IMG/VR virus record: IMGVR_UViG_2541047775_000007
Origin: a virus
Lineage: Duplodnaviria; Heunggongvirae; Uroviricota; Caudoviricetes
Direction: 5' to 3' (one strand)
DNA length: 43,098 nucleotides
Part shown: one piece after another, positions 1 through 43,098 of the stretch
Numbering within the stretch: the stretch's first letter is position 1
Layout of the letters: each line of letters opens with the position of its first letter
The notes under the pieces: generated by a model
What the model was told of the DNA's origin: nothing
Database searches by the model: none
The model's input: the letters and a program-made list of their open reading frames with translations, nothing else
Position numbers and translations under genes: made by a program

Positions 1-1127
<1,127 letters not shown>

Positions 1128-5090: not shown

Positions 5091-5387
5091 TCAAATAGAG
5101 AAATAAACACAAAAACAAAAAACAACAGGAACAGCAAAATCCAACAGACTTCCCACATCCCACACGCGTGGATCAAAACCTCCCCACCACGGCATGTTGA
5201 TACGTTTCCCTTTCCCAAACTTTTCTATCCAGCGATATTCTGCCTGGGTGTGTTCACGCGCAATGAAGAACGTACAACCGGCTATCGCACCGTAAGCCCA
5301 GTTTCCGGTAAAAATACCAACCAGTACCTGAGCCACAAAAGCGCAAAGCGAGTGAAGAAATGGAGTGACATCAATGCTCTTAATCAT
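5091..5387 (-). CDS. small membrane protein (98 aa), translationally coupled to the tailspike gene
   Basis: Start codon overlaps tailspike stop (ATGA); 2-3 hydrophobic segments. Confidence 0.5.
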   Translation of the reverse strand: MIKSIDVTPFLHSLCAFVAQVLVGIFTGNWAYGAIAGCTFFIAREHTQAEYRWIEKFGKGKRINMPWWGGFDPRVWDVGSLLDFAVPVVFCFCVYFSI

Positions 5388-7573
5388 GAAACTTCCCCAT
5401 TGGTTGAAAATATGGCTCCTCCAACGCCAAGTGTATTTCGTGTTGTGCTCAACCTCAGAGGGCTGGAGTCAGAATTAGAATATCCTGTAGCAGAAATAAA
5501 AGATCCTCCACTAATAGTCAACTGCGGAACATCGGCTATATCTGAATAAGTTCTGTCAGCAACAGTATTATTTATAGCCACATATGATCCAAAAAAACTT
5601 CTTATTGTTTGGTTTTTAACTTTACTTCCTTCAATGGTTATCCTACTACCACAGTCGGCAATAAATCCTGAATCTGCATCCAGCGTTGCATTCATAAAAG
5701 AAGCTTCAGATCTCTCTACATCAATCCATCTAATATCTTTTGTGGGATTTGCACCAAATACATGACAAATATTAGAGTTAAACCTTACACCATCTTGGAG
5801 GTGCATTAATTTTTTTATATCTGTACCCCATAGCCTTGGAAAATTAACAGATGCTCCTGCATGGCAATCAAATCCCAGCTCAGCCCCTGAGATATCTACA
5901 GCCTTTCCTGAAATAACAGCACCAGTGTCTGCATTAACGGCTGTTCCACAATTGCGCATATCATTACCAGCAACATCAACGCAACCCGCACCATCAATAC
6001 GCACACCAAGTGCACATCCATAAAAACCTTTTTCAATATTTGGTTCAAGGACTTTACCACTTGTTTCTGCATCACTTTCTTCAACGTCATGTCGTCTTGC
6101 ATCAACATATGCTGTATGAATGCAGGTTAATCCACGATATGAGCAATGTATAGTTTTATGGTCGCGTATATTAACATTTGAACCATCTCTTACATTCCAT
6201 CCTATATAACAATAGCTTGCACTTGACCCCTGAAAATCTGCTTTAACATTATAAATACAATTAACTGACGCAACCGTACTCTCTGTGCACCGTTCAAACT
6301 TGCTTACAGGCATTGATGCCTTGACATTATTTACCAGTTGCAGGGAAGAGTATCTGCTATAAGAAAAATCACATACGTAATACCCTTCTGGCATATATGC
6401 AGCAACACTTTCCTCATCAGGAGCACATCCGGTATGATATGCACTAATTTTTGCACCAAAACTACCATGAATTCCAACGTAGAACTTTCGAGCACCTGAA
6501 TACGGATAGAAATTAAGTTCAGCTTTTTGAGTTACAATAAATGCACAAACATCGCTATCATCTCTATTTTCTTCGATCTGAATAGCAAATACAGGACTTT
6601 TTGCTGCATCGCAAATGTAAAATAAATACTTGTATTCGTAATACGTTCTAACGATTTTAGTAAACAAACGAGTGTCAGAGAAAACCACTGAGTCTTCTGA
6701 TGTTATTTTAATCCAAGACAAATCAACACCTGAACTGAATTCAATTTGATAGTTGATAATATGCCCGGTCTTAATTCTTATTTCGCAGAAAGCATTACCA
6801 CCATCCCACATAGGTCTCATTGACTGGGCTGCAATGATTGCATCTTTGAGTGTAGGGTAATCACCCCATTCGCCAACAGTAATAACAAAAGTATAATATG
6901 AGTTAAAAACAGCGGCATTTTTGCCTTTGGATATCAACTCCTTAATCATAAAAATATTATCTTCGTAATCACAAGGAGAAATTATATCCCTCATTTTGCT
7001 TTGAAATGTTCGTTGTCTTGCCCCGCTTCCTGACGGTATAAACCAACCAAAACCACCAACAACCCCGGCGATTGCAGCATCGACATAATTACGCATTGAG
7101 CGATTATTTACAGCATCCTGCTCAAGTGATGGATCTGCAAGGTTAGAAATTCTGTTTTGCTTTGCATCGTAATATTTTGCAAGCAGAGAGGGCTTCATCA
7201 ATGCACGTCTGAACCACCCAAAACATTGCTGGATCAGCATCGTCAGGTAGTCAAAGGCATCTTCATGCACTTCGGGGAAAAATTTTCCCTGATTGCGAAG
7301 GTCTGTCTCCTGCACTACATCAAGCACACGATCTATCGTAATTCGCCATCCAGTAGCAAGCGGAGACGGAAGAACCACAGAACCGCCACTATAAGTGCCC
7401 GCCCCAGTTACCGTATAACCGGTATCCAGGACCAATTCTGTTACGTTCCCGTTCAGGTCAGACACCTGAACAACCAGGTCTGATTTTCTGAAAATTCGAA
7501 AAGTATACGGAAACGATGTCGTAACGCCGTTACCGGTGTATTCGTTGTGGTCAACTTCGGTTGAGACCGTCAT
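5384..7573 (-). CDS. tailspike / tail fibre with conserved N-terminal virion-attachment domain and probable beta-helix receptor-binding/depolymerase body (729 aa)
   Basis: N-terminus MTVSTEVDHNEYTGNGVTTSFPYTFRIFRKSDLVV matches the conserved podovirus tail-fibre/tailspike N-domain motif; AT-rich body with many Cys and Asn/Gly repeats; RBS ggag before ATG. Confidence 0.8.
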   Translation of the reverse strand: MTVSTEVDHNEYTGNGVTTSFPYTFRIFRKSDLVVQVSDLNGNVTELVLDTGYTVTGAGTYSGGSVVLPSPLATGWRITIDRVLDVVQETDLRNQGKFFPEVHEDAFDYLTMLIQQCFGWFRRALMKPSLLAKYYDAKQNRISNLADPSLEQDAVNNRSMRNYVDAAIAGVVGGFGWFIPSGSGARQRTFQSKMRDIISPCDYEDNIFMIKELISKGKNAAVFNSYYTFVITVGEWGDYPTLKDAIIAAQSMRPMWDGGNAFCEIRIKTGHIINYQIEFSSGVDLSWIKITSEDSVVFSDTRLFTKIVRTYYEYKYLFYICDAAKSPVFAIQIEENRDDSDVCAFIVTQKAELNFYPYSGARKFYVGIHGSFGAKISAYHTGCAPDEESVAAYMPEGYYVCDFSYSRYSSLQLVNNVKASMPVSKFERCTESTVASVNCIYNVKADFQGSSASYCYIGWNVRDGSNVNIRDHKTIHCSYRGLTCIHTAYVDARRHDVEESDAETSGKVLEPNIEKGFYGCALGVRIDGAGCVDVAGNDMRNCGTAVNADTGAVISGKAVDISGAELGFDCHAGASVNFPRLWGTDIKKLMHLQDGVRFNSNICHVFGANPTKDIRWIDVERSEASFMNATLDADSGFIADCGSRITIEGSKVKNQTIRSFFGSYVAINNTVADRTYSDIADVPQLTISGGSFISATGYSNSDSSPLRLSTTRNTLGVGGAIFSTNGEVS

Positions 7574-8030: not shown

Positions 8031-8052
8031 AAAGGCCGCAAGAGCGGCCTAT
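8031..8052. terminator. bidirectional intrinsic terminator (aggccgc-aaga-gcggcct) between convergent genes
   Basis: 7-bp GC stem flanked by T/A-rich runs on both sides; nearly identical hairpin recurs at 11282-11299. Confidence 0.55.
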
Positions 8053-8777
8053 CGTTTCGCTTTGTGCTCGTCCCAGCACGTTTTGCACCATGCCATTAAG
8101 CCATCCGCATTTTGATTATTAGGGTAAAAGCTTGTTCGTTTTCTGCGGACATTACAAATTGGGCACCACTTCATATGGCGTGTATTCTTTGGGCCATCGA
8201 GACACCTTGCACACCACTTAGTCAATCCATCTGGATTTTTTGACGATTTCCTGAATTTTTCATATGGTAGGTTTATTCTGCATCGCAAGCACTGCTTGCT
8301 ACCACTTGAAACTCTGTTAGCTGATTCTTCTTTTGGCGGCGATACAGAAGGTATTCTTGCTGGCTCTGATACTGCCTGAGGTGCTTTTTTAGATGACTGA
8401 GACGATATGTCATCACCAGGGAATCTTCCATGATATGCCGGACGCATTGACACTCCAGGTGGAAGCTCAGCTGTAAACGGCTTTGGCTGAATCAGTTGCC
8501 TCTCTTTTGCTAACTCCTGCTGTTTATAATATGTCTGGATTACCGCACTATCATAAGCAGGAGGTGCGGAAATATTAGGCGCATTACCTCCAGTTTTTTG
8601 AAACTGAGTAGAGGTGTGTTCTATCACCTGTGTACGATTAATCGTTATCTCCCCATCTTCGGTCTTTATCGTTTTGTTATGATTAACGACCGTACGATCA
8701 GAGATCTTAGTCTTGTTCTGGTTGATAACGTAAATAATCACCGCAACCACACCAACAACTATCCAGAAAACTTCCAT
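8049..8777 (-). CDS. membrane-anchored protein with C-terminal tandem CxxC zinc-ribbon-like motifs (242 aa)
   Basis: RBS gaggaaaag before ATG; N-terminal TM helix; long low-complexity linker; C-terminus CLRC...NPDGLTKWCARC...WCPIC...NADGLMAWCKTC (duplicated DGL..WC..C unit). Confidence 0.7.
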   Translation of the reverse strand: MEVFWIVVGVVAVIIYVINQNKTKISDRTVVNHNKTIKTEDGEITINRTQVIEHTSTQFQKTGGNAPNISAPPAYDSAVIQTYYKQQELAKERQLIQPKPFTAELPPGVSMRPAYHGRFPGDDISSQSSKKAPQAVSEPARIPSVSPPKEESANRVSSGSKQCLRCRINLPYEKFRKSSKNPDGLTKWCARCLDGPKNTRHMKWCPICNVRRKRTSFYPNNQNADGLMAWCKTCWDEHKAKR

Positions 8778-9947: not shown

Positions 9948-10157
9948 ATGGGATTTTGGTTCGCTCGTACAAAAACGAGGGATAATGCACCCAGCCCTCA
10001 GGCAAAAAATGCAGAAGTTCCGGCGTCAGCGCAGGTTAACAAGCGTGGTGGTGTGTATATCTCATCACAGCAAATTTCTGAGCTTCCTGAGGTTAAGGAG
10101 ATGCGTCGTCTCGCTGCTGCAATCGTTAAACAGGATCTTGCCACTGTAAGGAAATAG
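9948..10157 (+). CDS. small hydrophilic protein (69 aa), first gene of a two-gene cassette
   Basis: Very strong RBS gaggaggagat before ATG; stop overlaps start of downstream gene. Confidence 0.6.
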   Translation: MGFWFARTKTRDNAPSPQAKNAEVPASAQVNKRGGVYISSQQISELPEVKEMRRLAAAIVKQDLATVRK

Positions 10158-11023
10158 TGTTGTTAGCTCTTCTAATTATCCCCATTCTGGTTAGTGGTTA
10201 TATTATGATAACCGCTAACCAGTATCATTATTTCCGTTTATACCGACATGAAGGCCAGCTTCTTTATATGAAAGTAGCTGCATTAGGTACATATTGCCTT
10301 GTTGCTTCGGTAATAATTGCCGCATTTATAAAATATAAATATCCTGATTTTCACCTAGTTCACGATATGGTGGAAACTTTTAATGTAACGTCAAAACCAG
10401 AAACAGATAGAATTTACATGTGGCTGCTTCTTCTCTCAGCCACATCCATTTGCTTCTCTTTGTGTTATGTGTCTGTTGTGTGGGTGAAAGATTTTCTTCT
10501 TGGTTGTTTTTATAAACGTGATATTTACGAGCAAAAAACAGAGGCAATGAAGGCCAGAGTACTGCGAAAAACTTACTCGCAAGGTTCTTTAGACTTACTA
10601 TTGCTTGATGCTATTGAATCGGATCCTAAACGACCAATGCTGATTACTTTATCATCAAACAAAGTGTATGTTGGAATAATAAATGGTTCTGGTGAACCAA
10701 CGGAAAATCAGGGTCCGCATCAGCACATATCTTTTGTTCCTTTAATGTCAGGATACAGGAACAAAGACAACTTATCTGTCACATTCACTAATGCTTATCC
10801 AGGAGAAATACAGGTCAAGCGGACTGCAGCAATAAGAGGAATTAGCAGAAAGAAAGTGCCAGGACTTGAGATCATGGTGTCTATTGACGAAATAAGTTAT
10901 ATATCATGGTTTGATTTTGAAGTATATAAAGCAACAAATAACAAAGTAGAATCCAGGGGGCACGTTATTCGTGTTACCAAAAATGGAAGAAATATATATC
11001 AAAGAAATAGCAAAAAAGAATAG
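10157..11023 (+). CDS. AT-rich membrane protein (288 aa; about 3 N-terminal TM helices plus about 170-aa C-terminal domain), candidate superinfection-exclusion/defence protein
   Basis: GTG start with RBS aaggaaa, overlapping upstream stop; markedly lower GC than flanking phage genes; strong terminator downstream. Confidence 0.6.
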   Translation: MLLALLIIPILVSGYIMITANQYHYFRLYRHEGQLLYMKVAALGTYCLVASVIIAAFIKYKYPDFHLVHDMVETFNVTSKPETDRIYMWLLLLSATSICFSLCYVSVVWVKDFLLGCFYKRDIYEQKTEAMKARVLRKTYSQGSLDLLLLDAIESDPKRPMLITLSSNKVYVGIINGSGEPTENQGPHQHISFVPLMSGYRNKDNLSVTFTNAYPGEIQVKRTAAIRGISRKKVPGLEIMVSIDEISYISWFDFEVYKATNNKVESRGHVIRVTKNGRNIYQRNSKKE

Positions 11024-11043
11024 CCCGCGCTGCGGGCTTTTTT
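11023..11043 (+). terminator. rho-independent terminator (gcccgc-gct-gcgggc plus T6)
   Basis: GC stem followed by TTTTTT immediately after the 10157..11023 stop. Confidence 0.7.
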
Positions 11044-11115
11044 GTGGACGAAACAAAAGCCAGTGCTACACTCATTGACGCCACATTGAGGTGGCTTATA
11101 GATGGAAATTTCACA

Positions 11116-11277
11116 ATGAAAAAAGCATTTGCTGCACTGTTCGTTTTGTTGTCTCTGGTAGCTTCAACTCAGGCCTTTGCCGGTCGTTGTCAGCACGACA
11201 GCGATACTGCCGCTGACGGCTCCCGCTGCGGTGGGCGTTCTGCGGATTCCCGCCCGGGTGGCGGTGGCATTCGTTAA
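11116..11277 (+). CDS. small secreted Gly/Cys-containing peptide (53 aa precursor, about 31 aa mature)
   Basis: MKKAFAALFVLLSLVASTQAFA signal peptide, then GRCQHDSDTAADGSRCGGRSADSRPGGGGIR; candidate promoter TTGACG-N17-ATAGAT upstream; weak RBS. Confidence 0.45.
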   Translation: MKKAFAALFVLLSLVASTQAFAGRCQHDSDTAADGSRCGGRSADSRPGGGGIR

Positions 11278-11299
11278 AAACAAGGCCGCGAAAGCGGCC
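11274..11299 (-). terminator. intrinsic terminator (aggccgc-gaaa-gcggcct) ending the minus-strand late operon
   Basis: 7-bp GC stem; T-run on the minus strand; separates convergent transcription units. Confidence 0.6.
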
Positions 11300-11300
11300 T

Positions 11301-11312
11301 GTGACATGTCAC
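11301..11312. other. perfect 12-bp palindrome GTGACATGTCAC (motif C copy 1)
   Basis: Overlaps the stop codon of 11309..11605 and abuts the terminator; same palindrome at 31123-31134 and near-identical at 28858-28869. Confidence 0.6.
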
Positions 11313-11605
11313 GTCCCTTTTCTGAATGATAGCCATTCGAAAAATGATGACATTCCACCGCAGACAATAGCAAAGATGATCCCACCAAAGAAGAGAAGGC
11401 CAGCCTGCCACCACTCCCACCGCCATACATCCACAGCGCCAACCATACCAACAATCGCTCCAACAAATGGAATATAGCTCACGATGAAAGCAATGGGGGC
11501 TGCAATTATCCAGTGCAATCCCCACCATGATTCAAGCCCAGCCATAATTGCTGCCAACTGAAAAAGACCAACGACGATATAAACAATGAATCCTATAGCT
11601 TGCAT
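11309..11605 (-). CDS. small integral membrane protein (98 aa, about 3 TM helices, Trp-rich)
   Basis: RBS aggtga before ATG; highly hydrophobic; last gene of the late operon. Confidence 0.6.
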   Translation of the reverse strand: MQAIGFIVYIVVGLFQLAAIMAGLESWWGLHWIIAAPIAFIVSYIPFVGAIVGMVGAVDVWRWEWWQAGLLFFGGIIFAIVCGGMSSFFEWLSFRKGT

Positions 11606-11617
11606 GTAGTCACCTAT

Positions 11618-11791
11618 TTACCCAGTAAAAATAAGAGGCCTCCCCTCAATAAGGCTTGCAACAAGAACTACTCCCTGCACAACAAAGATGAACCAGCAAA
11701 TAGCTTGAGTCTGAGGGTTAAGAAAATATTTGTAGCGGTCAATAAATAACAATACACCAGAAATTATCACACTCAAAATAATTAAAAACAC
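11618..11791 (-). CDS. candidate small membrane protein (about 57 aa), below the ORF-track size cut-off
   Basis: GTG start 4 nt after RBS aaggaag, directly after the stop of 11801..14275; two hydrophobic segments. Confidence 0.35.
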   Translation of the reverse strand: MFLIILSVIISGVLLFIDRYKYFLNPQTQAICWFIFVVQGVVLVASLIEGRPLIFTG

Positions 11792-11800
11792 AACACTTCC

Positions 11801-14275
11801 TTATTGCGGAGTGACATCCTGAGGTCGCCACCAGTATGTCTGGTTAAACTCTTTCTTCGAACGTTGCTCCATTTTACGCAAATAGCCTGGTGAAAAATAC
11901 TCCTGCATCTGGTTAAAGATCATGTGATCGAGAGCCGCCTTCAAGTACCAGAGATTCGCACCAGGCATCAAACCTTTCCCCAGCTTCACCAGATCACCAC
12001 CAGTCTGCTCACTCTTCCCTTCCACAGCATTTAACGGTATGCCCTGAGCAATCTTCACTACGTCATCAACTAGACCAGCTACCGGGCCAAGCATCGACGC
12101 CAGCGCGCCGCTTCCGTACCTAGTGTGATCTGACAATAAAAAGTCACCGTAAAGGCCAAGACCACCACCTTTCAGTAGAGCACCAAGCCAGAATTTTGCG
12201 GCATCTTCTCCTGTCATCTCTCGAGGATTACGACCAGACGCAAGGTCGTTAAGTTGTTGCGACAAAGCGCCAAGAATGGTCGTACTGGCAATAAACGTCG
12301 CAATATATGCCGCACGCCCACCAGCAGACGGCATACCCATAGCGCGTGACCAGTGACGCATAACAACCGAGATAGGGAACGATTTAAACAGGAAAACACT
12401 TCTCGTTAATTCACCTTTCCATGTTCCACGCTGAATACCAGAACCGGTTATCAGTTGCTCACGTGCTCCCGGTGTAATAACAGCCATATCAACTTCTTCA
12501 GTTACGGCACCGAGCAGTTTACGCATTGCCTCAAATTTCACGCGTTCAGGCTCACCAAGATGTTTAACTGCTGAATCAGGGATACGCATAATGCTTTCCG
12601 GTGTCAGCATCGTATTATTACCGTTCCCCCAGTCCTCCTGTTGCGCCAACTTCCATACGCTCCAGTCTGTGTCAGTAATCCCTTTGCTTTTCAGGATACG
12701 AAAATCAGAGTCATCGAGGCGACGAAGGTCTGGTGTCCGTGACACTACTTCTCCCAGGCTTCCCATCATGGTTACGCCATAGGCGCGCTTGTGCGCATCT
12801 GACCATGCTGTAAGCCCACTGGCACGCATTACCGCCGTTGCAGCCCAACGAGACACAGACGGCCCCATATTATCCATCGCCCAGCGGTTAACGCTGCCAA
12901 GTAGAGATTCCATCGCCAGACCAGCGCGGCGCGCCCGCGCAAGTTCTGTACGGTTCGTTGGGTCCATAGCTTCAAGCTGGTTGCGGAATAACTGGTTCAT
13001 TGGAAGGTTGGTAACCTTCGCAGACAGATACATGGTTCCAAGATCAGAGAACGATGACAGCAACGCGGATCCGAGTCTGCTGGCAACCAGCCAGTTGCGG
13101 ATATTGTCAGACCATCGCGCGATGTGCGGATTCGCTACAGGCTGTGTCTTTCCGGAAATAAAGTTGTACAGATTCTCTGTGTTGTTCGCCAGCCGCTCGA
13201 CTTTACCGGTTTTACTCGGGTTAGCTGTTGCCGTTTCTGCCTTCACCTGATCAAGAAGAGAGCGGAAAACATGATCGGGGTTTGGACCATATGTTTCCAC
13301 CAGTGCAATATCTTTACTGATACCTTCCAGGTGACCGACCATGATTTCCCATAGAGAGCGATCGCCATAAAGTTGCTGATATTGCAGATAGGAATCTGCA
13401 TCTTTGAAATGTATCTGTCGTGATGCATTACCACGGTTAGCACGTGCGCCGGAAATTCGCATTCCGGTATCAGTAAGCTTATTCAGCCCACCAGTAGCGA
13501 TCGTGTTATAAGCCTCTCCAAGAAATGCAGACAACTCGGCATCGTTCATCAGTTGTCCATCGGCTCGGGTATAATATTTGCGATCCAGCTTACCTATAAC
13601 ATCGCTAACCCATTTATCTTTTGATACCGCCCCAACCTTTTCCATAGAATGATGTTGAGGGATCCCCCAGTTTTCGAGATAGCCAATGTCCCCACCAGCA
13701 TCATTAAACCGGCGGCGCAGTAGCTCTGTCACTTCTCTCCACGCCTTAGCACCTTTTCTTGCTTTAGCATTGCCAGTATTTTGCCCCAGCATTTCATATA
13801 CCAGGTCACGTACGCCCGCTTCATCTTCAAACAGACCAAAAAAGCGAGGATCAACTGCTTCGAATGCCTCCTGCAATTGACTCAATGCATAATCACGGGT
13901 GGCTTTTGTTCTGGATTCAACAGAGAGGAAATTCGATTTACCGTCTGCATTAAAAGCAATAGTACGGTTAAGAGCGCCAAGTTTCCCATCAGCCCCTTGA
14001 TAGCTATTGATAAATTTATCCAATCTCTGACGTGCGGCTATAGTGAGGGCCACACGACGTTTCTTTAATGCCGCTTCTCGCTGTAATTCTTCAGATGCCA
14101 ATTGTGCTGCACGATACAGCCGCTCTGATTCGGAAAGTTGTCGCCACGACATCGGGTCATCACGAGCAATGGAGCGCATATTTCGATAAATGCGGTCTTC
14201 AATGTTCTGTATTTCTCGCGCCGTTAACGTGCGCTGCGCCGCCTGCTGGACCGCTTGTATACATTCCTGTCTCAT
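11801..14275 (-). CDS. large internal virion / ejection protein (824 aa)
   Basis: Position at the end of a T7-like structural gene order; size and composition fit internal core proteins. Confidence 0.55.
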   Translation of the reverse strand: MRQECIQAVQQAAQRTLTAREIQNIEDRIYRNMRSIARDDPMSWRQLSESERLYRAAQLASEELQREAALKKRRVALTIAARQRLDKFINSYQGADGKLGALNRTIAFNADGKSNFLSVESRTKATRDYALSQLQEAFEAVDPRFFGLFEDEAGVRDLVYEMLGQNTGNAKARKGAKAWREVTELLRRRFNDAGGDIGYLENWGIPQHHSMEKVGAVSKDKWVSDVIGKLDRKYYTRADGQLMNDAELSAFLGEAYNTIATGGLNKLTDTGMRISGARANRGNASRQIHFKDADSYLQYQQLYGDRSLWEIMVGHLEGISKDIALVETYGPNPDHVFRSLLDQVKAETATANPSKTGKVERLANNTENLYNFISGKTQPVANPHIARWSDNIRNWLVASRLGSALLSSFSDLGTMYLSAKVTNLPMNQLFRNQLEAMDPTNRTELARARRAGLAMESLLGSVNRWAMDNMGPSVSRWAATAVMRASGLTAWSDAHKRAYGVTMMGSLGEVVSRTPDLRRLDDSDFRILKSKGITDTDWSVWKLAQQEDWGNGNNTMLTPESIMRIPDSAVKHLGEPERVKFEAMRKLLGAVTEEVDMAVITPGAREQLITGSGIQRGTWKGELTRSVFLFKSFPISVVMRHWSRAMGMPSAGGRAAYIATFIASTTILGALSQQLNDLASGRNPREMTGEDAAKFWLGALLKGGGLGLYGDFLLSDHTRYGSGALASMLGPVAGLVDDVVKIAQGIPLNAVEGKSEQTGGDLVKLGKGLMPGANLWYLKAALDHMIFNQMQEYFSPGYLRKMEQRSKKEFNQTYWWRPQDVTPQ

Positions 14276-14280
14276 TTAAT

Positions 14281-16083
14281 TTAACCTCTCAAGAAACACG
14301 CCACAGCAACATCAAACAGGCTGGAATCCTGTATTGCCTGCTCACTTTCCCTGTTCGCTTCATCCAGTACTTCACGCGCACTGCGCGATTGTGGATTACC
14401 ATCATCATCCAGCACGGTGATTATCATGTCAGGTGATTCAAGCAGCGAGTCTTCAGCTATACGCAGATCAATATCTCCTGCCGGATCTGCCATCATTTTT
14501 TGTTCTGTCTGTTGCAATATCTTACCGGGCTCAAAAGGAGCTACTTCTTCTGGCGTCCTGACCTCTGCTGTTTTATAGAATGAAACAGCCTGAGCATTAA
14601 GTTCACTTTCTGCCTGCTGTCGTCGTGCCAGTTCTGCTCGAGCTTCAAAAAACTGACCTCCAGGCTCGTGCGGCGCCAACGCGTTACGAGAAAATTCCAG
14701 GCGTTCTTGTGCCTGCCGGATTCGTTGGTCAATATCGCGAAGTCTGGCCTGTTTATCTGATCGAGCACGAGATAAAGCCTTACCGCTACCGGTTGGCTCT
14801 TCTGCAAGAATTTGTGCGCGCTGTTCAGTGAGATTTTCAATAATTCGTTGGCTATTAGCGATTTCAGACTGGTAAACCTTTCTATCGCCACGCGACAAAA
14901 GCTGCGCGGCCTGTTCTTCAAGCAACCGATTTTCTATAGCGCGCGCCGTTACTCCATCATCTACAGATGACAGAGCCTCATTAACTGCCTGAGACAGCAG
15001 ACTCTTGCGACCAGGAATTTCACTGAAAGATGCAGACTCAACAATGCTGGCAACGTCTACAGGTCTCCCCTGGCTAACATCAGACATGGCTTTTCGCAGA
15101 GCCTGAATGTGCGAATTACGCGAAAGCACGTTGATCGGAACGCCGGGAGCAATATCAATTTCAGCATGATGAGCGGCATTCGCCGCCAGTGCAGCATCAA
15201 TATCAACTGGTGAAAAATTTGGTGCGCTTGTAGACTCGCCGCGAGAGTTAATAAATCTGCCGACACCACCAAACGCCACCCCAAGAACAGCATCAATAGC
15301 AATTGCCTGTCGATCCAACACATCATACTGGTTAGCCATTTCGCTATAGCCACCATCACGAAGCGTTTTTGCAGTAAGCCCACGCTGTGCCATACCGAAC
15401 GCAATATTTGTACCTGCGGCATAGGCAATATCTGGCGTTGCACGTACTGCTGTTGCTGCGGCGCGTCGCACTGAACTCTCACCCGTCCGCGCAAGCTGAG
15501 CCGCCACACCTTCCGCCAGCGCACCACCAGCACGTAACCCGAGGCTCATAGGGATCAGTGTTCCGGCACCAGCAGTAATACCCTGCACTAATCCCGCTTC
15601 CTGCGCCGTCCTGAAATCAACACCCTGTGCTGTCAGCCGTTCAAACTCAGAAAAACCCTGTAGCGAAGTTACCGCCGCAGCACCTCCGACCGGACCACCG
15701 AGCGTTGTACCGATAACAGCCTGCCCGCCCATATCGAACAACCCATAAAGAACCTGCCCGGCGGTTCCGGTTGTCGCGGCATCAGGCGTCAGCCGCTTAA
15801 CCTGCTGCTCTGCTAGTTTTCTCTGCTCGGCAATGTATGAAACTGAAGTGTCATTGAGCGAGGTGTTTTCGTTAACAAACTGAGCAATCGGGGATACGAT
15901 TTTATCCATCCCTGCCCAGAGCAACTGATCTGGCTTTGCCACCAGCCCGGAGTACAAACCAGACAATGCCGCTCCTACAGCATTGTCGAAAAAACCAACA
16001 TCGCTGTTAAAGCCAGCTGGATTTGATGCTGCTTCGTCAAGCTGCTGATTCTGGTTTACTGGATTAAGGCCAAAGTAACTCAT
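14281..16083 (-). CDS. internal virion / ejection protein (600 aa), Gly/Ala-rich
   Basis: Within the run of internal-core genes; start overlaps upstream stop. Confidence 0.5.
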   Translation of the reverse strand: MSYFGLNPVNQNQQLDEAASNPAGFNSDVGFFDNAVGAALSGLYSGLVAKPDQLLWAGMDKIVSPIAQFVNENTSLNDTSVSYIAEQRKLAEQQVKRLTPDAATTGTAGQVLYGLFDMGGQAVIGTTLGGPVGGAAAVTSLQGFSEFERLTAQGVDFRTAQEAGLVQGITAGAGTLIPMSLGLRAGGALAEGVAAQLARTGESSVRRAAATAVRATPDIAYAAGTNIAFGMAQRGLTAKTLRDGGYSEMANQYDVLDRQAIAIDAVLGVAFGGVGRFINSRGESTSAPNFSPVDIDAALAANAAHHAEIDIAPGVPINVLSRNSHIQALRKAMSDVSQGRPVDVASIVESASFSEIPGRKSLLSQAVNEALSSVDDGVTARAIENRLLEEQAAQLLSRGDRKVYQSEIANSQRIIENLTEQRAQILAEEPTGSGKALSRARSDKQARLRDIDQRIRQAQERLEFSRNALAPHEPGGQFFEARAELARRQQAESELNAQAVSFYKTAEVRTPEEVAPFEPGKILQQTEQKMMADPAGDIDLRIAEDSLLESPDMIITVLDDDGNPQSRSAREVLDEANRESEQAIQDSSLFDVAVACFLRG

Positions 16084-18593
16084 TGCGGAATATCTCCGGA
16101 GAATCTCTGACGCTTCTGTGTCAGATCAAGAACAACGGGAGAACCATCATCTTTTAGCAGATAACCAGTACCAAGTTTCACCAGGTACTGACTATCGCCG
16201 TAACTTTGCAAACCATACTGACCATGCGGTGTTTTTATCCCTGTGCCAACAACTTGTTCATTCCAAGCCTGATTAACCTGCTTATCGAATTGCTCTGCAG
16301 ACATTCCCCACGGCAAAAGAACATTCCCCATTCCGTTATAGTCATGCACGCCACCTGTAGCTACGTTAACAGCCTGTTTCCAGATATCATTGTCAATTTC
16401 GCCTGATACCACGCCTTTTTTCGCCATCACACCAGCGTAATAGTCCTTTGCGATCTCGTATGCCATTGATGCCCCCTGAGCATCACCAGCAAATGCATCC
16501 TTCACCATGTCAGAAAACTCAAGGCGGAGATCAGCATCTTTAGGCATCGGAATACCTTTCGCGTCATCAGTACCTTTACGAGCCGCCGCGCCAGCAAGAA
16601 TTGTCTGCGCAGCGGTTTCAGGAGACACGGAAACATCCGGATTAAACCAGTTTTTTTCTGCCAAAATACCACCTGGCTTATCCATCAGTATCCCGGCAAC
16701 GGCAGCAGATGGAGCGTTGGCACTGATCTGCTGTAGTGCTGACATATACACCTGCCCACCACCAGTGCTCTGCCTGATGGTATCGAGATATGCTGCCTGT
16801 TGGGAAACGGGCGCATCACGAAAGAAAACACCGATCTGATTGGCCTCGTCTTTGGAAAAGAACGTCAGTGGAGTGCCATATGACTTAGCAAGGTCACTGA
16901 CCTGAGCAGCACGCAAGGCAACGCTCTGTCCAAAGTTATCCTTATTGCTCATGTCGATAGGCTTTGCCTGTCCGGCGGCAAGAGAGAACTGTACAGGATC
17001 AGCCTGTCGCTGCTTTATCACCTGACTTGCAGCCGAAACAACGTTGTCATAAAGAGCGGCTCGTGCCGCATAACCCTCCCCTGTCTCACCAGTATCCGGG
17101 CGTAATTGCTCAACATATGCTGTAATGCTGCTTGTCGGCATGTTGCGGAAAGAGCCTATATACTGTCCGGCGATTTGCGTATTTCTGAACTCGGTATATC
17201 GCAGGTTTCCTTCTCTTACTCCATAAGCTGCAATAAAATCAGCCTCACCAGGTGGGTTAGGAAATTCAACGCCACGCATATACGCAGCTGTCGCATCGCG
17301 AACCTGGCTGTCAATCATCGTTTTATATTCAGCCTGCTGCTGCCGACGCAGTTGATCCGCCTGTCGCATAAAACTTGCCTGCGCCTCAGGAGATGCCGCA
17401 TCGAATGCTGCATTACCGGTATAGCGTTTGGTGTTGGTTGGAATTGTTGATAAACCAAGTGCTGCACTGACACCAGCAGTTAACTGCTGATCACTGTATG
17501 GCTGGCTACCGTTCTCATGATGGATAATGGCTGCACAAAGCGCCTTCAGGGTATCAGGATTAGATGCATCGAGAGGCTCATCAGCAGAAACGCCAAGTTG
17601 TTCGCACACTGCTTTGATATACGACATAGTGTCATTTTTATCAGTAGGCGGTGCCCAGCGATTAATTATCTCGCTGACGGTATCAATACCCTGCCTCTGA
17701 TACGACATCAGGTTCCGCCCTAATGCACGAATCCCGTGTTCAGGTGTTTCGAATTTAGCAAATCGACCATCATCACCGGTCTGGCCTACCCACGGATTAG
17801 TTTTGCTGTATTCGAGATTTCCTGGGTTATTGTTGCGTATGCCACGGGCACGCTCGGAAGAGTCACTATCTGCTACAGCACGGCGAGCTCCAGCAGCAGT
17901 ATCACTTAACTCGCCATTACTTTGGATGAATGCGGTCGCATTGTTTGCCGACCACTGGGACAATGCAGCATCAGCAACCTTCTCTTTAAACTCGATTTTC
18001 TTGGCCTGGATTTGCTCGTCACTCCAGCCATGTGCAATGCCGTAATCCTCAATTTGCTGGAAAGTTTGCTTATTAGCCAATACGTATGCGGCGTTGTCGC
18101 CATACAATGCTGCGGCATTTTTACCATTGTTCAGCAGCGTAGCCTGAAACTGGCCTTCTTCGTAGGCATTTATTTGCCCTATCTCGTGCCGCCCTGCCTG
18201 CGTAGTGAACTGAATGCGCTGCTGCTGCGCCTGCTGCATGAAAGCATTACGAGCCTGTTCATCCGGCAGCGACATAGCCAGTTGTTCGACCTGAGCATCA
18301 AACTGCTGCGTATACTCCTGACCTTTTCCAATAGCATTTTTCCCTTTCAGGTTAAGCAATCCTGTTTCAGGATTATTCAGCAGATCACTGCTTATCTGAC
18401 TGAGGTTAAGAGATGCCTCCTGAGCCAGAGCGATATTGGCACGCTGTTTTGCCTGACCAAAAACATCAATTGCCTCTGTCCCTGCCCGAACAAAAGCATC
18501 ACCAATACCTGGCTGAGAAAACGTCTGCAAGCCTGCTGACTGAACTCCACGGCTCTGAACCTGACGGCCGGATACTGTTGGTACGACTGGCAT
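16080..18593 (-). CDS. large internal virion protein (about 838 aa) with conserved RNNNPGN-containing central domain
   Basis: Preferred start ATG at 18593 (RBS ggagga, overlaps upstream stop); ORF-track extension to 18668 overlaps the preceding gene. Confidence 0.55.
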   Translation of the reverse strand: MPVVPTVSGRQVQSRGVQSAGLQTFSQPGIGDAFVRAGTEAIDVFGQAKQRANIALAQEASLNLSQISSDLLNNPETGLLNLKGKNAIGKGQEYTQQFDAQVEQLAMSLPDEQARNAFMQQAQQQRIQFTTQAGRHEIGQINAYEEGQFQATLLNNGKNAAALYGDNAAYVLANKQTFQQIEDYGIAHGWSDEQIQAKKIEFKEKVADAALSQWSANNATAFIQSNGELSDTAAGARRAVADSDSSERARGIRNNNPGNLEYSKTNPWVGQTGDDGRFAKFETPEHGIRALGRNLMSYQRQGIDTVSEIINRWAPPTDKNDTMSYIKAVCEQLGVSADEPLDASNPDTLKALCAAIIHHENGSQPYSDQQLTAGVSAALGLSTIPTNTKRYTGNAAFDAASPEAQASFMRQADQLRRQQQAEYKTMIDSQVRDATAAYMRGVEFPNPPGEADFIAAYGVREGNLRYTEFRNTQIAGQYIGSFRNMPTSSITAYVEQLRPDTGETGEGYAARAALYDNVVSAASQVIKQRQADPVQFSLAAGQAKPIDMSNKDNFGQSVALRAAQVSDLAKSYGTPLTFFSKDEANQIGVFFRDAPVSQQAAYLDTIRQSTGGGQVYMSALQQISANAPSAAVAGILMDKPGGILAEKNWFNPDVSVSPETAAQTILAGAAARKGTDDAKGIPMPKDADLRLEFSDMVKDAFAGDAQGASMAYEIAKDYYAGVMAKKGVVSGEIDNDIWKQAVNVATGGVHDYNGMGNVLLPWGMSAEQFDKQVNQAWNEQVVGTGIKTPHGQYGLQSYGDSQYLVKLGTGYLLKDDGSPVVLDLTQKRQRFSGDIPQ

Positions 18594-19138
18594 TATAATC
18601 CTCCGGGTAATCTGGTTCCTGCTGCTGCCCCGATTGGCGCAGGGGTGCTTTGAGTAAACGGACTCCACGTCCCACCAAACATCTGGTACGCACCGTATGC
18701 CTTCAGAGGCGCAGTGAGCAATGTTGTTGCTGCTCCCACATTCCCCTGTTTACGGGCTGAACTGGCTTCTGCTTTATAGTTGGCAGCCTGAACCTGATAA
18801 CCGTAAGCCTCGCGTTGCGCGTTATTCACCGTCGTCAGAGAATCAAGAGCGCCAAACTGGGCAGTGTCGCCAAATATATCCAGCGCGTTACCTGTAGATA
18901 AATCAGCGCCGGTAGCCCCCATTGTCGCCGCCTGTGTACCAAGCCGCTGTCGGGTCTCTCTGCGTCGTTGCTCAGCTTCAGCGTTACCTCTGTTTATTGC
19001 ATCATTTGCCTGAGCTGTGGCTATATCTGCGTTCGCTTCTGCAACCTTCGAGGCATACTTTCCCTGTTGGTACTGGGTGTATGCCTGAATGCCACTCATG
19101 GCGAGCATTGCGCCACCAGCAATAACCGGATCGCACAT
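18593..19138 (-). CDS. internal virion protein (181 aa), T7 gp14-like position
   Basis: Gene order; Ala/Gly/Gln-rich. Confidence 0.45.
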   Translation of the reverse strand: MCDPVIAGGAMLAMSGIQAYTQYQQGKYASKVAEANADIATAQANDAINRGNAEAEQRRRETRQRLGTQAATMGATGADLSTGNALDIFGDTAQFGALDSLTTVNNAQREAYGYQVQAANYKAEASSARKQGNVGAATTLLTAPLKAYGAYQMFGGTWSPFTQSTPAPIGAAAGTRLPGGL

Positions 19139-28206: not shown

Positions 28207-28283
28207 GTGGCATTAGCTCAGTTGGACAGAGCAACCGCCTTCTAAGCGGTTGGTCGCAGGTTCGAATCCTGCATGCCACGCCA
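28207..28283 (+). tRNA. tRNA-Arg (anticodon TCT), phage-encoded
   Basis: Manual cloverleaf: acceptor gtggcat/atgccac, D-arm gctc...gagc, anticodon stem accgc/gcggt with loop CTTCTAA, T-arm gcagg-ttcgaat-cctgc, discriminator G plus encoded CCA. Confidence 0.85.
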
Positions 28284-41850: not shown

Positions 41851-43098
41851 TTATCCCGCCATCCACTTCTCAAACTTCGACGGGGAGAACGGAATCAGAT
41901 CCGTATGCTCCCCGTCAATCCAGGAATCAATCATATCGGCCCACTGCTGCAACATGTAGGCGCGCTGTCTGGCGTATTCCGCTTTGTTATATACGGCGCG
42001 CACACCTTTCTGCTCATGTGCCAGAGCCTTTTCAATCCAGTCTGAAGGATAACCAGCCTCATGCAACAACGTACTTGCTGTACGGCGCATATCGTGTACG
42101 GTGAAGCCCTGAATATGCTCACCATCTTCATTTATTATTTTCACCGTTCTGTCGATCAGAGAGTTCAGCGCGGCATTAGATAATGGCTTCCGGAAATTGT
42201 AACGACCAGGAACCAGATATTCACTTCCACCAGCGCACATCTGCAACCCGACCAATATATCCTGAGCCTGTTTAGGCAGGTAAATAACGTGCGCCCGGCT
42301 TCCCTTCATGCGGTCTGAAGGAATTGTCCATGTCCATTTTTTAAAATCTATTTCATCCCACGTTGCGTTGGTGAATTCGCCTTTACGAACCATAGTGATA
42401 AGCACCAGCTTTAAAGCCATTTTCATAGTGCCCATAGCACCAATGGCATCCAGCGTGCGGAAGAACAGGCCAATTTCTTCTGGTGTCAGTGTTCGCTCTC
42501 GTGGTTTAAATATGGCGATAGACGAAGGTTTAATGTCAGCCGCAGGATTAAACAAACCATGACCACGGTCATTGGCGTGACGGTATACGCTGCTGATGAT
42601 CTCCCTGGCCTGTACTGCTGTTGCCCGACCACCGCGTTCGACAATCCGGTCACACAAATCACGAACCATCGATGTGGTAATTTCAGCCATCATTTTGTTG
42701 CCAAGAACCGGAAGTATGTCACGGTCGATCACCGCCTGCTTCATTGCGCGGGTACTGTCAGCCAGGATGACGTGTTTCATATAACTGTCGGTATGTACCG
42801 CAAACGTCTCAGCACCACGAATCTTTTTGATACCGTCACGTTTAGCCGCAGCCGGTGACTGGCCTGCTTTAAGCAGCTTCTTTGCAGCAATCAGTTCTTC
42901 CCGCGCTTCTGCCAGGCTGATACCGTCACGCCCATACTGCCCGATTACCAGTGTTTCGCGGCGACCGTTGATACGGTAGTCATAGCGAAACGAGACCGTG
43001 CCTGACGTAAGCACAGCTACATACAGCCCGTCACGATCGGAGACCTTGTACAGTTTGTCCTGCGGCTTGAGGTTTTTTAATTTTGTATCGGTAAGCAC
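41851..43098 (-). CDS. int: tyrosine integrase, P4-type (N-terminus at or 1-2 codons beyond window end)
   Basis: N-terminal LTDTKLKNLKP...LYVAV arm-binding pattern and C-terminal catalytic region with R...H..R...Y spacing typical of P4-like integrases. Confidence 0.85.
   Translation of the reverse strand: MLTDTKLKNLKPQDKLYKVSDRDGLYVAVLTSGTVSFRYDYRINGRRETLVIGQYGRDGISLAEAREELIAAKKLLKAGQSPAAAKRDGIKKIRGAETFAVHTDSYMKHVILADSTRAMKQAVIDRDILPVLGNKMMAEITTSMVRDLCDRIVERGGRATAVQAREIISSVYRHANDRGHGLFNPAADIKPSSIAIFKPRERTLTPEEIGLFFRTLDAIGAMGTMKMALKLVLITMVRKGEFTNATWDEIDFKKWTWTIPSDRMKGSRAHVIYLPKQAQDILVGLQMCAGGSEYLVPGRYNFRKPLSNAALNSLIDRTVKIINEDGEHIQGFTVHDMRRTASTLLHEAGYPSDWIEKALAHEQKGVRAVYNKAEYARQRAYMLQQWADMIDSWIDGEHTDLIPFSPSKFEKWMAG

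Follow-up and report, generated by a model that had tools for sequence, protein, structure and literature searches.

We describe here a small gene at positions 11116..11277 (+) of IMG/VR record IMGVR_UViG_2541047775_000007, a stretch of 43,098 nucleotides (nt; hereafter the window) which is an epsilon15/phiV10-like (Uetakevirus) prophage. The gene is an open reading frame (ORF) of 53 codons, and its product is predicted to be exported by the Sec route and cut to a 31-residue peptide with two cysteines. Two statements on its nature are well supported, namely that it is a mobile prophage accessory gene (a moron), probably self-contained, and that its product derives from a widespread cellular module. 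The whole reading, i.e. a self-contained moron for an exported, stapled periplasmic peptide which would be active in the lysogen, we regard as an even call. The ORF has been annotated before; new are its assignment to a large family, as yet uncurated, that spans phyla, and the observation that different prophages have captured it repeatedly.

The reading frame and its predicted product

The ORF opens with ATG (11116-11118), closes with TAA (11275..11277, + strand) and encodes the precursor MKKAFAALFVLLSLVASTQAFAGRCQHDSDTAADGSRCGGRSADSRPGGGGIR; position and length are those reported in a first-pass annotation of the window. Its length is uninformative by itself, because 225 six-frame ORFs of at least 53 amino acids (aa) are found in the window, and it is conservation that decides. 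A single-sequence search returned 57 homologues, which come from Escherichia, Shigella, Klebsiella, Citrobacter, Cronobacter, Salmonella, Pectobacterium, and Dickeya. When these are aligned, the signal peptide is variable and residues 23-49 are almost unchanged (G23, C25, H27, D30, A32, and D34-G49). Over 25 core codons, the entropy at codon positions 1, 2, and 3 was 0.31, 0.22, and 1.26 for 14 Enterobacterales loci and 0.76, 0.54, and 1.68 for 58 loci from several phyla. This pattern argues for strong purifying selection on the mature peptide in the ORF's own frame and hence for a real gene.

The opposite view is that terminator or spacer DNA is conserved here for other reasons and carries the ORF by chance. 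It can draw on the frequency of ORFs of at least this size and on a 100-aa antisense ORF (11164-11466 (−)), which overlaps the peptide gene and has comparable counterparts at homologous loci. Nevertheless, variation lies mostly at third positions of the peptide frame across genera and phyla, and both the signal-peptide features and the stop position are kept. From the coordinates, the variable positions of the peptide frame are the first codon positions of the antisense ORF. Because they land there, the antisense ORF is best taken not as a selected frame but as an artefact of the Gly/Ala/Arg-rich coding strand, devoid of codon-like selection. The first-pass annotation had named terminator DNA conserved without the ORF as one of the findings that would speak against a gene; the codon-position entropy contradicts such a view, to which we give a negligible probability.

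Two further frames at the 5′ side were rejected. The version extended to an upstream GTG (77 aa, PHROG 3117) starts inside the upstream terminator, and the extension is not conserved. A mini-ORF of five codons, ATGGAAATTTCACAATGA (11103-11120), lies behind GAGGTGG, and its TGA overlaps the ATG of the peptide gene (ATGA); its own ATG is not conserved in other genera and it probably exists by chance.

The N-terminus of the precursor shows the n/h/c layout of a signal peptide, with MKK as the n-region, the 13-residue hydrophobic core AFAALFVLLSLVA, and STQAFA before Gly as the c-region, so that Ala stands at both −3 and −1. A basic n-region, an h-region of 7-15 residues and small residues at −3/−1, as expected of a precursor for Sec and signal peptidase I (SPase I), are all present. 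The predicted cut after Ala22 divides the precursor into the signal peptide MKKAFAALFVLLSLVASTQAFA (residues 1-22; 11116..11181, + strand) and the mature peptide GRCQHDSDTAADGSRCGGRSADSRPGGGGIR (11182..11274, + strand). Statistics on the cleavage site were drawn from 153 non-identical small members of the family. The −1 residue is Ala in 130 of the 153, the −3 residue is A, S, V, T, or G in 145 and the +1 residue is Gly in 142; the modal signal length is 22, and exactly two Cys follow the predicted cut in 152/153. Layout and family statistics together predict Sec export and cleavage by SPase I after Ala22. The classical signal peptide with two Cys described in the first-pass annotation is thus found again, the former in the n/h/c layout and the latter as residues conserved in the family. 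The SPase II lipobox ([LVI][ASTVI][GAS]C with Cys at +1) is absent from the peptide, which reads AFAGRC with Cys three residues past AXA.

The mature part has the composition G8 R5 D4 S4 A3 C2, a mass of ~3060 Da and an isoelectric point of 8.1. Its core follows the pattern C-x4-D-x-A-x-D-G-S-R-C-G-G-R-S-A-x-S-R-P-G-G and is almost unchanged in homologues, the residue before Cys25 being Arg here and Asn in most relatives. A disulfide between Cys25 (codon 11188-11190, + strand) and Cys38 (codon 11227-11229, + strand) is presumed in the mature peptide. AlphaFold2 modelled the peptide with a mean confidence (pLDDT) of 77.8, compared with 71.5 for a four-cysteine relative (see below).

The same protein is present in several databases. 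Proteins with 100% identity are found in TL-2011b, in phage phiv142-3, where the gene is named Orf11, and in RefSeq as WP_000708858.1, 'hypothetical protein'. PHROG 14503 ('membrane associated protein', moron category) matches at full length (E 2.3e-40, residues 1-53/53), and in TL-2011b and some Klebsiella phages the product is called 'transmembrane anchored protein'. The latter name derives from the hydrophobic N-terminus alone and is probably a misnomer for a cleavable signal peptide, because the hydrophobic core is short and the AXA-Gly site is conserved.

Family and prophage contexts

A scan with one genome per species provided 57 loci, which include Mesorhizobium, Rhizobium, Agrobacterium, Bradyrhizobium, Methylobacterium, and Devosia as well as Nostocales cyanobacteria, Vibrio, Bacteriovorax, and a myxobacterial metagenome-assembled genome (MAG). 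These loci encode a signal followed by G-x-C-x4-[DNQ]-x-A-x-D-G-S-R-C-G-x-R-[AS]-[AS]-x-x-R-P-G-G, one to four residues and the stop. A profile search retrieved 367 clusters from a 50%-identity library and 2021 clusters from a 90%-identity library. No Pfam domain was found in any of these clusters, which are named only 'hypothetical' or 'transmembrane anchored protein', and the cluster names of ten longer relatives are all 'hypothetical'. Longer proteins carry the motif as a module, either at the extreme C-terminus past a Gly-rich linker, or ahead of other domains and immediately behind the signal peptide, or in tandem. In cyanobacterial relatives it stands behind a lipoprotein-like signal and a Gly/Ser linker, with the lipobox farther upstream in some of them.

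A variant with four cysteines (4-Cys) forms a domain of ~63 residues with the order helix, YSGNCPCPYNxAxNGSRCGxRSAYSRPGGxxPxCY, helix (2262 clusters; P0287-P0405), and in most cases this domain constitutes a secreted protein of 90-110 aa. In hhalign the phage peptides align with the 4-Cys domain over 35 columns with a probability of 98.9% (E 2e-17). The two have a homologous core, are both extracytoplasmic, and have the first and third Cys in common; the phage peptide lacks the flanking helices and the second Cys pair. When 24 proteins with the 4-Cys domain were scanned, SH3_3 was found in three, PG_binding_1 in two, and a weak match to Excalibur (E 0.13) in one. Two relatives have YHYH-like His motifs. 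The Pfam entry DUF6719 was hit by one of the 24, the distant relative P0128, below the gathering score (E 0.034; 14.5 bits, cut-off 27). The 4-Cys domain has neither a Pfam or NCBIfam model nor a matching solved fold. From these alignments, the phage peptide can be described as an extracytoplasmic module reduced to its minimal core; the module is uncurated and, in some proteins, joined to domains that bind the cell wall. That the peptide was derived from a widespread cellular module, of which it would be the smallest stand-alone form, is well supported.

Scans of the peptide itself against Pfam (E ≤ 1), NCBIfam, and PADLOC gave only noise (HxsA3, 0.07, and MarB, 0.16, each on the signal peptide region), and PADLOC matched neither the peptide nor its neighbours. 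A profile search of PDB sequences returned nothing even at E 10. No paper was found in the literature for the protein name, the accession, or the motif strings.

The peptide gene is present in ~422 of 5426 complete E. coli genomes (~8%), where it lies in epsilon15/phiV10-like prophages; full-length matches with 100% identity were obtained in ~420 such genomes and in several phages. Among 80 E. coli viral contigs, the order tailspike, Bro/Ant genes, peptide gene, virion protein is constant and the immediate neighbours vary on both sides. The equivalent slot is occupied in Kluyvera, Klebsiella, Rahnella, Pantoea, and Buttiauxella prophages, and the homologue of the 824-aa virion protein is only ~25-27% identical at the Pantoea and Buttiauxella loci. 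In a Devosia MAG, a homologue of the tailspike N-domain is found near the peptide homologue. The membrane proteins of 98 and 57 aa encoded downstream in the window were considered as partners and rejected, as they are absent at many loci that keep the peptide gene.

Phage phiV10 has the same backbone without the peptide gene and retains only the last ~21 nt of the ORF together with the hairpin behind it. Here the end of the Bro/Ant gene is joined straight to the remnant (L153 3380-3570 against window 11255-11313), which reads as a deletion scar. Since phiV10 was isolated as a phage and its genome record is complete, the gene which it lacks appears to be dispensable for phage growth.

Elsewhere the gene occupies quite different places. 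In Pseudomonas prophages it is flanked by the last large virion protein on one side and the tail/tailspike genes on the other, is co-directional with them and also carries the 5′ hairpin; two or three T-run hairpins are seen downstream by eye, of which a terminator scan (L065) called none. In a Microvirga prophage it stands beside lysis and structural genes, in a Methylobacterium prophage beside an Ant-type gene, and in other Enterobacterales prophages after an Rz-like spanin (one Enterobacter prophage), after a Q-like antiterminator, near a tail fibre, or near a tape measure gene. In a metagenomic phage (L157, 3337-4200), the peptide homologue, with the ribosome site AAGGA, begins 29 nt past a CI-like repressor (HTH_3 and Peptidase_S24), with no hairpin between them. 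This repressor is divergent from a Cro gene (P22_Cro), and a hairpin with a T-run after the peptide homologue was read by eye as a terminator. A Tolumonas MAG (L014) has the same upstream sequence. In both, the homologue appears to form an operon with the repressor. A position behind a CI-like repressor is typical of genes expressed in the lysogen, for which rexAB of lambda is the textbook case. The place of a relative directly behind such a repressor gene is indirect evidence that the peptide gene is probably expressed in the lysogen.

Taken together, presence and absence among close relatives, with only a 3′ scar in phiV10, and occurrence in several unrelated prophage slots agree with the first-pass annotation, which had spoken of a moron, and the assignment as a mobile and probably self-contained accessory gene appears well supported. 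The placement at an island edge is likewise confirmed, the gene being at the 3′ edge of an accessory block that runs opposite to its surroundings. Similar single genes between conserved phage genes are bor and lom of lambda and the morons of HK97-type phages. They have their own promoter and terminator, which for the peptide gene are putative; they too are present or absent among relatives, have envelope-targeted products and are presumed to be expressed in the lysogen. Nevertheless, the lambda products are a lipoprotein (Bor) and an outer-membrane barrel (Lom), while the present peptide would be a soluble product of 31 residues, and there is no sequence relation between them.

Candidate functions of the peptide

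In the reading of an exported, stapled peptide, transcription would start from the gene's own weak sigma-70 promoter (−10 TACACT, 11067-11072) and give a short mRNA that begins with a stem-loop. The 53-residue precursor would be exported by Sec and cut by SPase I past Ala22. The 31-residue product (~3.06 kDa) would then be oxidised, whereby Cys25-Cys38 would staple a 12-residue loop ahead of the invariant CGGRSA..RPGG tail, and would act as a free periplasmic peptide in the lysogen. A periplasmic modulator or an exclusion factor is plausible as its function. T4 Spackle, which inhibits the gp5 lysozyme of incoming phages, is likewise a small Sec-exported periplasmic phage protein; it belongs to a lytic phage, has about three times the size of the peptide and shows no homology to it, and exclusion by the peptide is a guess.

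A rather doubtful extension, also a guess, is that the peptide binds a conserved target associated with the cell wall and thereby protects the lysogen. We consider it because the larger domain is fused to SH3_3 and PG_binding_1, because a core that is kept across phyla points to a universal target, and because these phages probably inject a transglycosylase-like virion protein of 862 aa. Protection might come from interference with the penetration of peptidoglycan by incoming phages that carry such an injected protein. The broader proposition, that the peptide is the smallest free-standing member of an undescribed, phylum-spanning Cys-loop module repeatedly captured by temperate phages of several architectures as a gene expressed in the lysogen, and represents a class of ~3 kDa periplasmic effectors with a cell-wall target, we consider improbable.

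Several results weigh against the reading of a periplasmic effector of the lysogen. Homologues occur at chromosomal loci between housekeeping genes (bacA..ffh, greA..carB, leuA..csp, and leuS..BON/lpoA), which shows a cellular role of the module that has nothing to do with phages; membership in the family thus does not imply exclusion. An all-against-all comparison of neighbour families in the 57 loci of the species scan revealed no recurrent partner, only prophage backbone genes and antisense-ORF artefacts. In some longer relatives (P0072, P0078, P0101, P0109, P0119, P0124, and others), the N-terminus resembles a signal peptide or that of a lipoprotein and is followed by a short domain, from which a hydrophobic segment and then a Gly-rich linker lead to the C-terminal motif; taken at face value, this topology could place the motif in the cytoplasm. 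The AlphaFold2 models, of moderate confidence, match no solved fold. A promoter scan upstream of the ORF found none at threshold, the putative promoter scoring 8/12 against a threshold of 9. Finally, the only functional study of a phage that carries the gene, a study of phiv142-3 which also covered transcripts (PMC7724020), examined orf6 and orf10 and does not list orf11 among the serum-induced genes.

The database names raise the question whether the hydrophobic segment remains uncleaved and tethers the Cys-containing tail at the inner membrane, where it would regulate a sensor or transporter. MgrB, the 47-aa regulator of PhoQ, acts as such a membrane-tethered small protein and resembles the precursor in its size, N-terminal hydrophobic segment, and two periplasmic Cys. 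In contrast to MgrB, an uncleaved membrane protein, the precursor has a hydrophobic core of merely ~13 residues and an Ala-x-Ala-Gly site that is kept in 85-95% of the 153 small members while other N-terminal residues drift. Moreover, the relatives in which the motif is a module, internal or at the C-terminus, are soluble proteins or are tethered as lipoproteins, and the Pfam scan gave no similarity to MgrB; a membrane anchor is accordingly rated as distinctly unlikely. Only slightly more weight goes to a periplasmic peptide that binds Ca2+ or another metal through an Excalibur-like loop, D-x-A-x-D-G-S-R-C-G, and buffers or senses divalent cations. The loop of Excalibur (PF05901) has the consensus D-x-D-x-D-G-x-x-C-E, and the D, D/N, G, and C of the peptide are in register with it; both are extracytoplasmic, Cys-bounded acidic loops of the form D-x-x-x-D-G-x-x-C. 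One relative (P0182) has an Excalibur-like stretch together with the motif, and the two relatives with YHYH-like His motifs would also fit. Yet the Excalibur hidden Markov model has no match on the peptide, its sole match (0.13) lying elsewhere in one relative. The loop of the peptide is far shorter and has Ala at the middle ligand position. Its acidic residues can vary, with substitutions in several of the subfamilies (QTDSRGRLC, DRDSAGRRC), and the His of CQH is kept only within Enterobacterales.

The first-pass annotation had offered an immunity factor, a bacteriocin-like peptide, and a periplasmic modulator as options. For a bacteriocin-like toxin, or the precursor of a ribosomally synthesised and post-translationally modified peptide, released to kill or to signal, small size, the Cys residues, a high Gly content, and a very weak NCBIfam match to a His-Xaa-Ser repeat protein (E 0.07; 12.9 bits, cut-off 65) would be suitable. 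The leader is of the Sec type instead of the double-glycine type, and Sec export ends in the periplasm; the 57 loci have no recurrent exporter, immunity, or maturation gene adjacent, and the gene is a single-gene unit in all contexts seen. As the motif is also a domain inside larger envelope proteins and homologues stand at housekeeping loci, this option is disfavoured, and we hold it to be very improbable. The same low weight is given to a role in the lytic cycle, e.g. as an accessory of lysis or virion assembly. The orientation with virion and tailspike genes in Pseudomonas prophages and the position after the Rz spanin in one Enterobacter prophage speak for it. Against it, the gene and the late operon run on opposite strands in the window and its relatives. 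The gene also has a TAnnnT box of its own and, where it is co-directional, is still followed by hairpins with T-runs, read by eye as terminators; another phage shows it in the position of an operon partner to a CI-like repressor, and phiV10 lacks it.

The putative periplasmic peptide would be worth pursuing on several grounds. Its gene occurs in about one in twelve complete E. coli genomes and in many other prophages of Proteobacteria. Its 25-residue core ranks with the best-conserved features of the accessory region, yet for the family no model in Pfam or NCBIfam, no structure, and no literature was found. A disulfide-stapled peptide of ~3 kDa can be synthesised and is unusually tractable, and its target would annotate several thousand 'hypothetical' proteins, including those with the 4-Cys domain. 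If it proved to be an exclusion or envelope-protection factor, a very small type of effector would be added to the functions of lysogenic conversion; otherwise, it would be one more conserved moron. Should the broader proposition above hold, the ~3 kDa peptide would stand for a novel class of periplasmic phage effectors, which would bind a universally conserved target associated with the cell wall and might e.g. block the breach of peptidoglycan by incoming virions or other hydrolases.

Flanking signals and neighbouring features

Upstream of the gene, a terminator scan detected a GC-rich hairpin with a T-run on the + strand (11022..11038; fold −14.4 kcal/mol, z −2.9), which ends the preceding cargo gene. 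Similarity to other E. coli prophages begins at this terminator at ~11013, the matches starting at query positions 101-123, which correspond to window ~11000-11022. A putative sigma-70 promoter follows at 11045..11072 (+), with a weak −35 TGGACG (11045-11050), a 16-nt spacer, and a TG-extended −10 TACACT (11067-11072). The T, A, and T of this TAnnnT box are unchanged in an alignment of 13 sequences from multiple genera. Another promoter match, TTGACG...TATAGA, was spotted by eye and set aside, as it is not conserved and the TAnnnT box is better supported.

At the predicted 5′ end of the transcript, the stem-loop GCCAC-ATTGAG-GTGGC (11080..11095, + strand; 5-bp stem, fold −8.4 kcal/mol, z −2.8) is found in the 5′ untranslated region. 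Its RNAalifold consensus over 13 sequences, including Pseudomonas, has four pairs, all of them with compensatory double changes. These features together suggest a weak promoter of the gene's own and a transcript that would start at a protective 5′ hairpin. A weak Shine-Dalgarno element, GGA (11104..11106, + strand), lies 9 nt before the ATG, and a GGA, AGG, or GAG element is present at the same distance from the start in aligned homologues.

The hairpin GGCCGC-GAAA-GCGGCC behind the gene (11283..11300) has a T-run on the − strand only, the strand on which phiV10 annotates a terminator. The two convergent units share this hairpin, which is primarily the terminator of the late operon, whose nearest member is the 98-aa gene (11309..11605); for the + strand, it lacks a T-tract and is no more than a hairpin. 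Of the two flanking terminators that had been proposed, the upstream one thus stands for the + strand, and the downstream one faces the other strand. A search of 10500-12000 against Rfam gave only sub-threshold noise.

The accessory block on the + strand comprises Bro/AntA-type genes, a low-GC cargo gene of 288 aa, and the peptide gene as the last member, with the tailspike gene (5384..7573, − strand) beside it. The cargo gene (10157..11023, + strand; PHROG 3630, unknown function) encodes hydrophobic N-terminal segments and has no Pfam or PADLOC match. The GC content rises from ~37% in this gene to 53-57% across the peptide gene. The cargo gene is found in few relatives only, and other genomes hold different cargo in its place, including a toxin of the YafO family. 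On the opposite strand within the block, an ORF of 242 aa (8049-8777 (−), PHROG 6762) gives weak Cys-motif matches of the endonuclease VII / Lar-like and the Stc1 type.

The convergent late operon on the − strand encodes the 98- and 57-aa proteins, followed by virion proteins of 824, 600, and 862 aa. In the last of these (16080-18668 (−)), residues ~270-418 match 'tail injection transglycosylase' and endolysin PHROGs (phrog_7182, E 1e-22), and the protein is probably an ejected, cell-wall-degrading one. A gene for tRNA-Arg (anticodon TCT) is located within the prophage at 28207-28283 (+). The window is bounded by a transposase-like ORF on the left (1-981 (+)) and by an integrase on the right (41851-43098 (−)).

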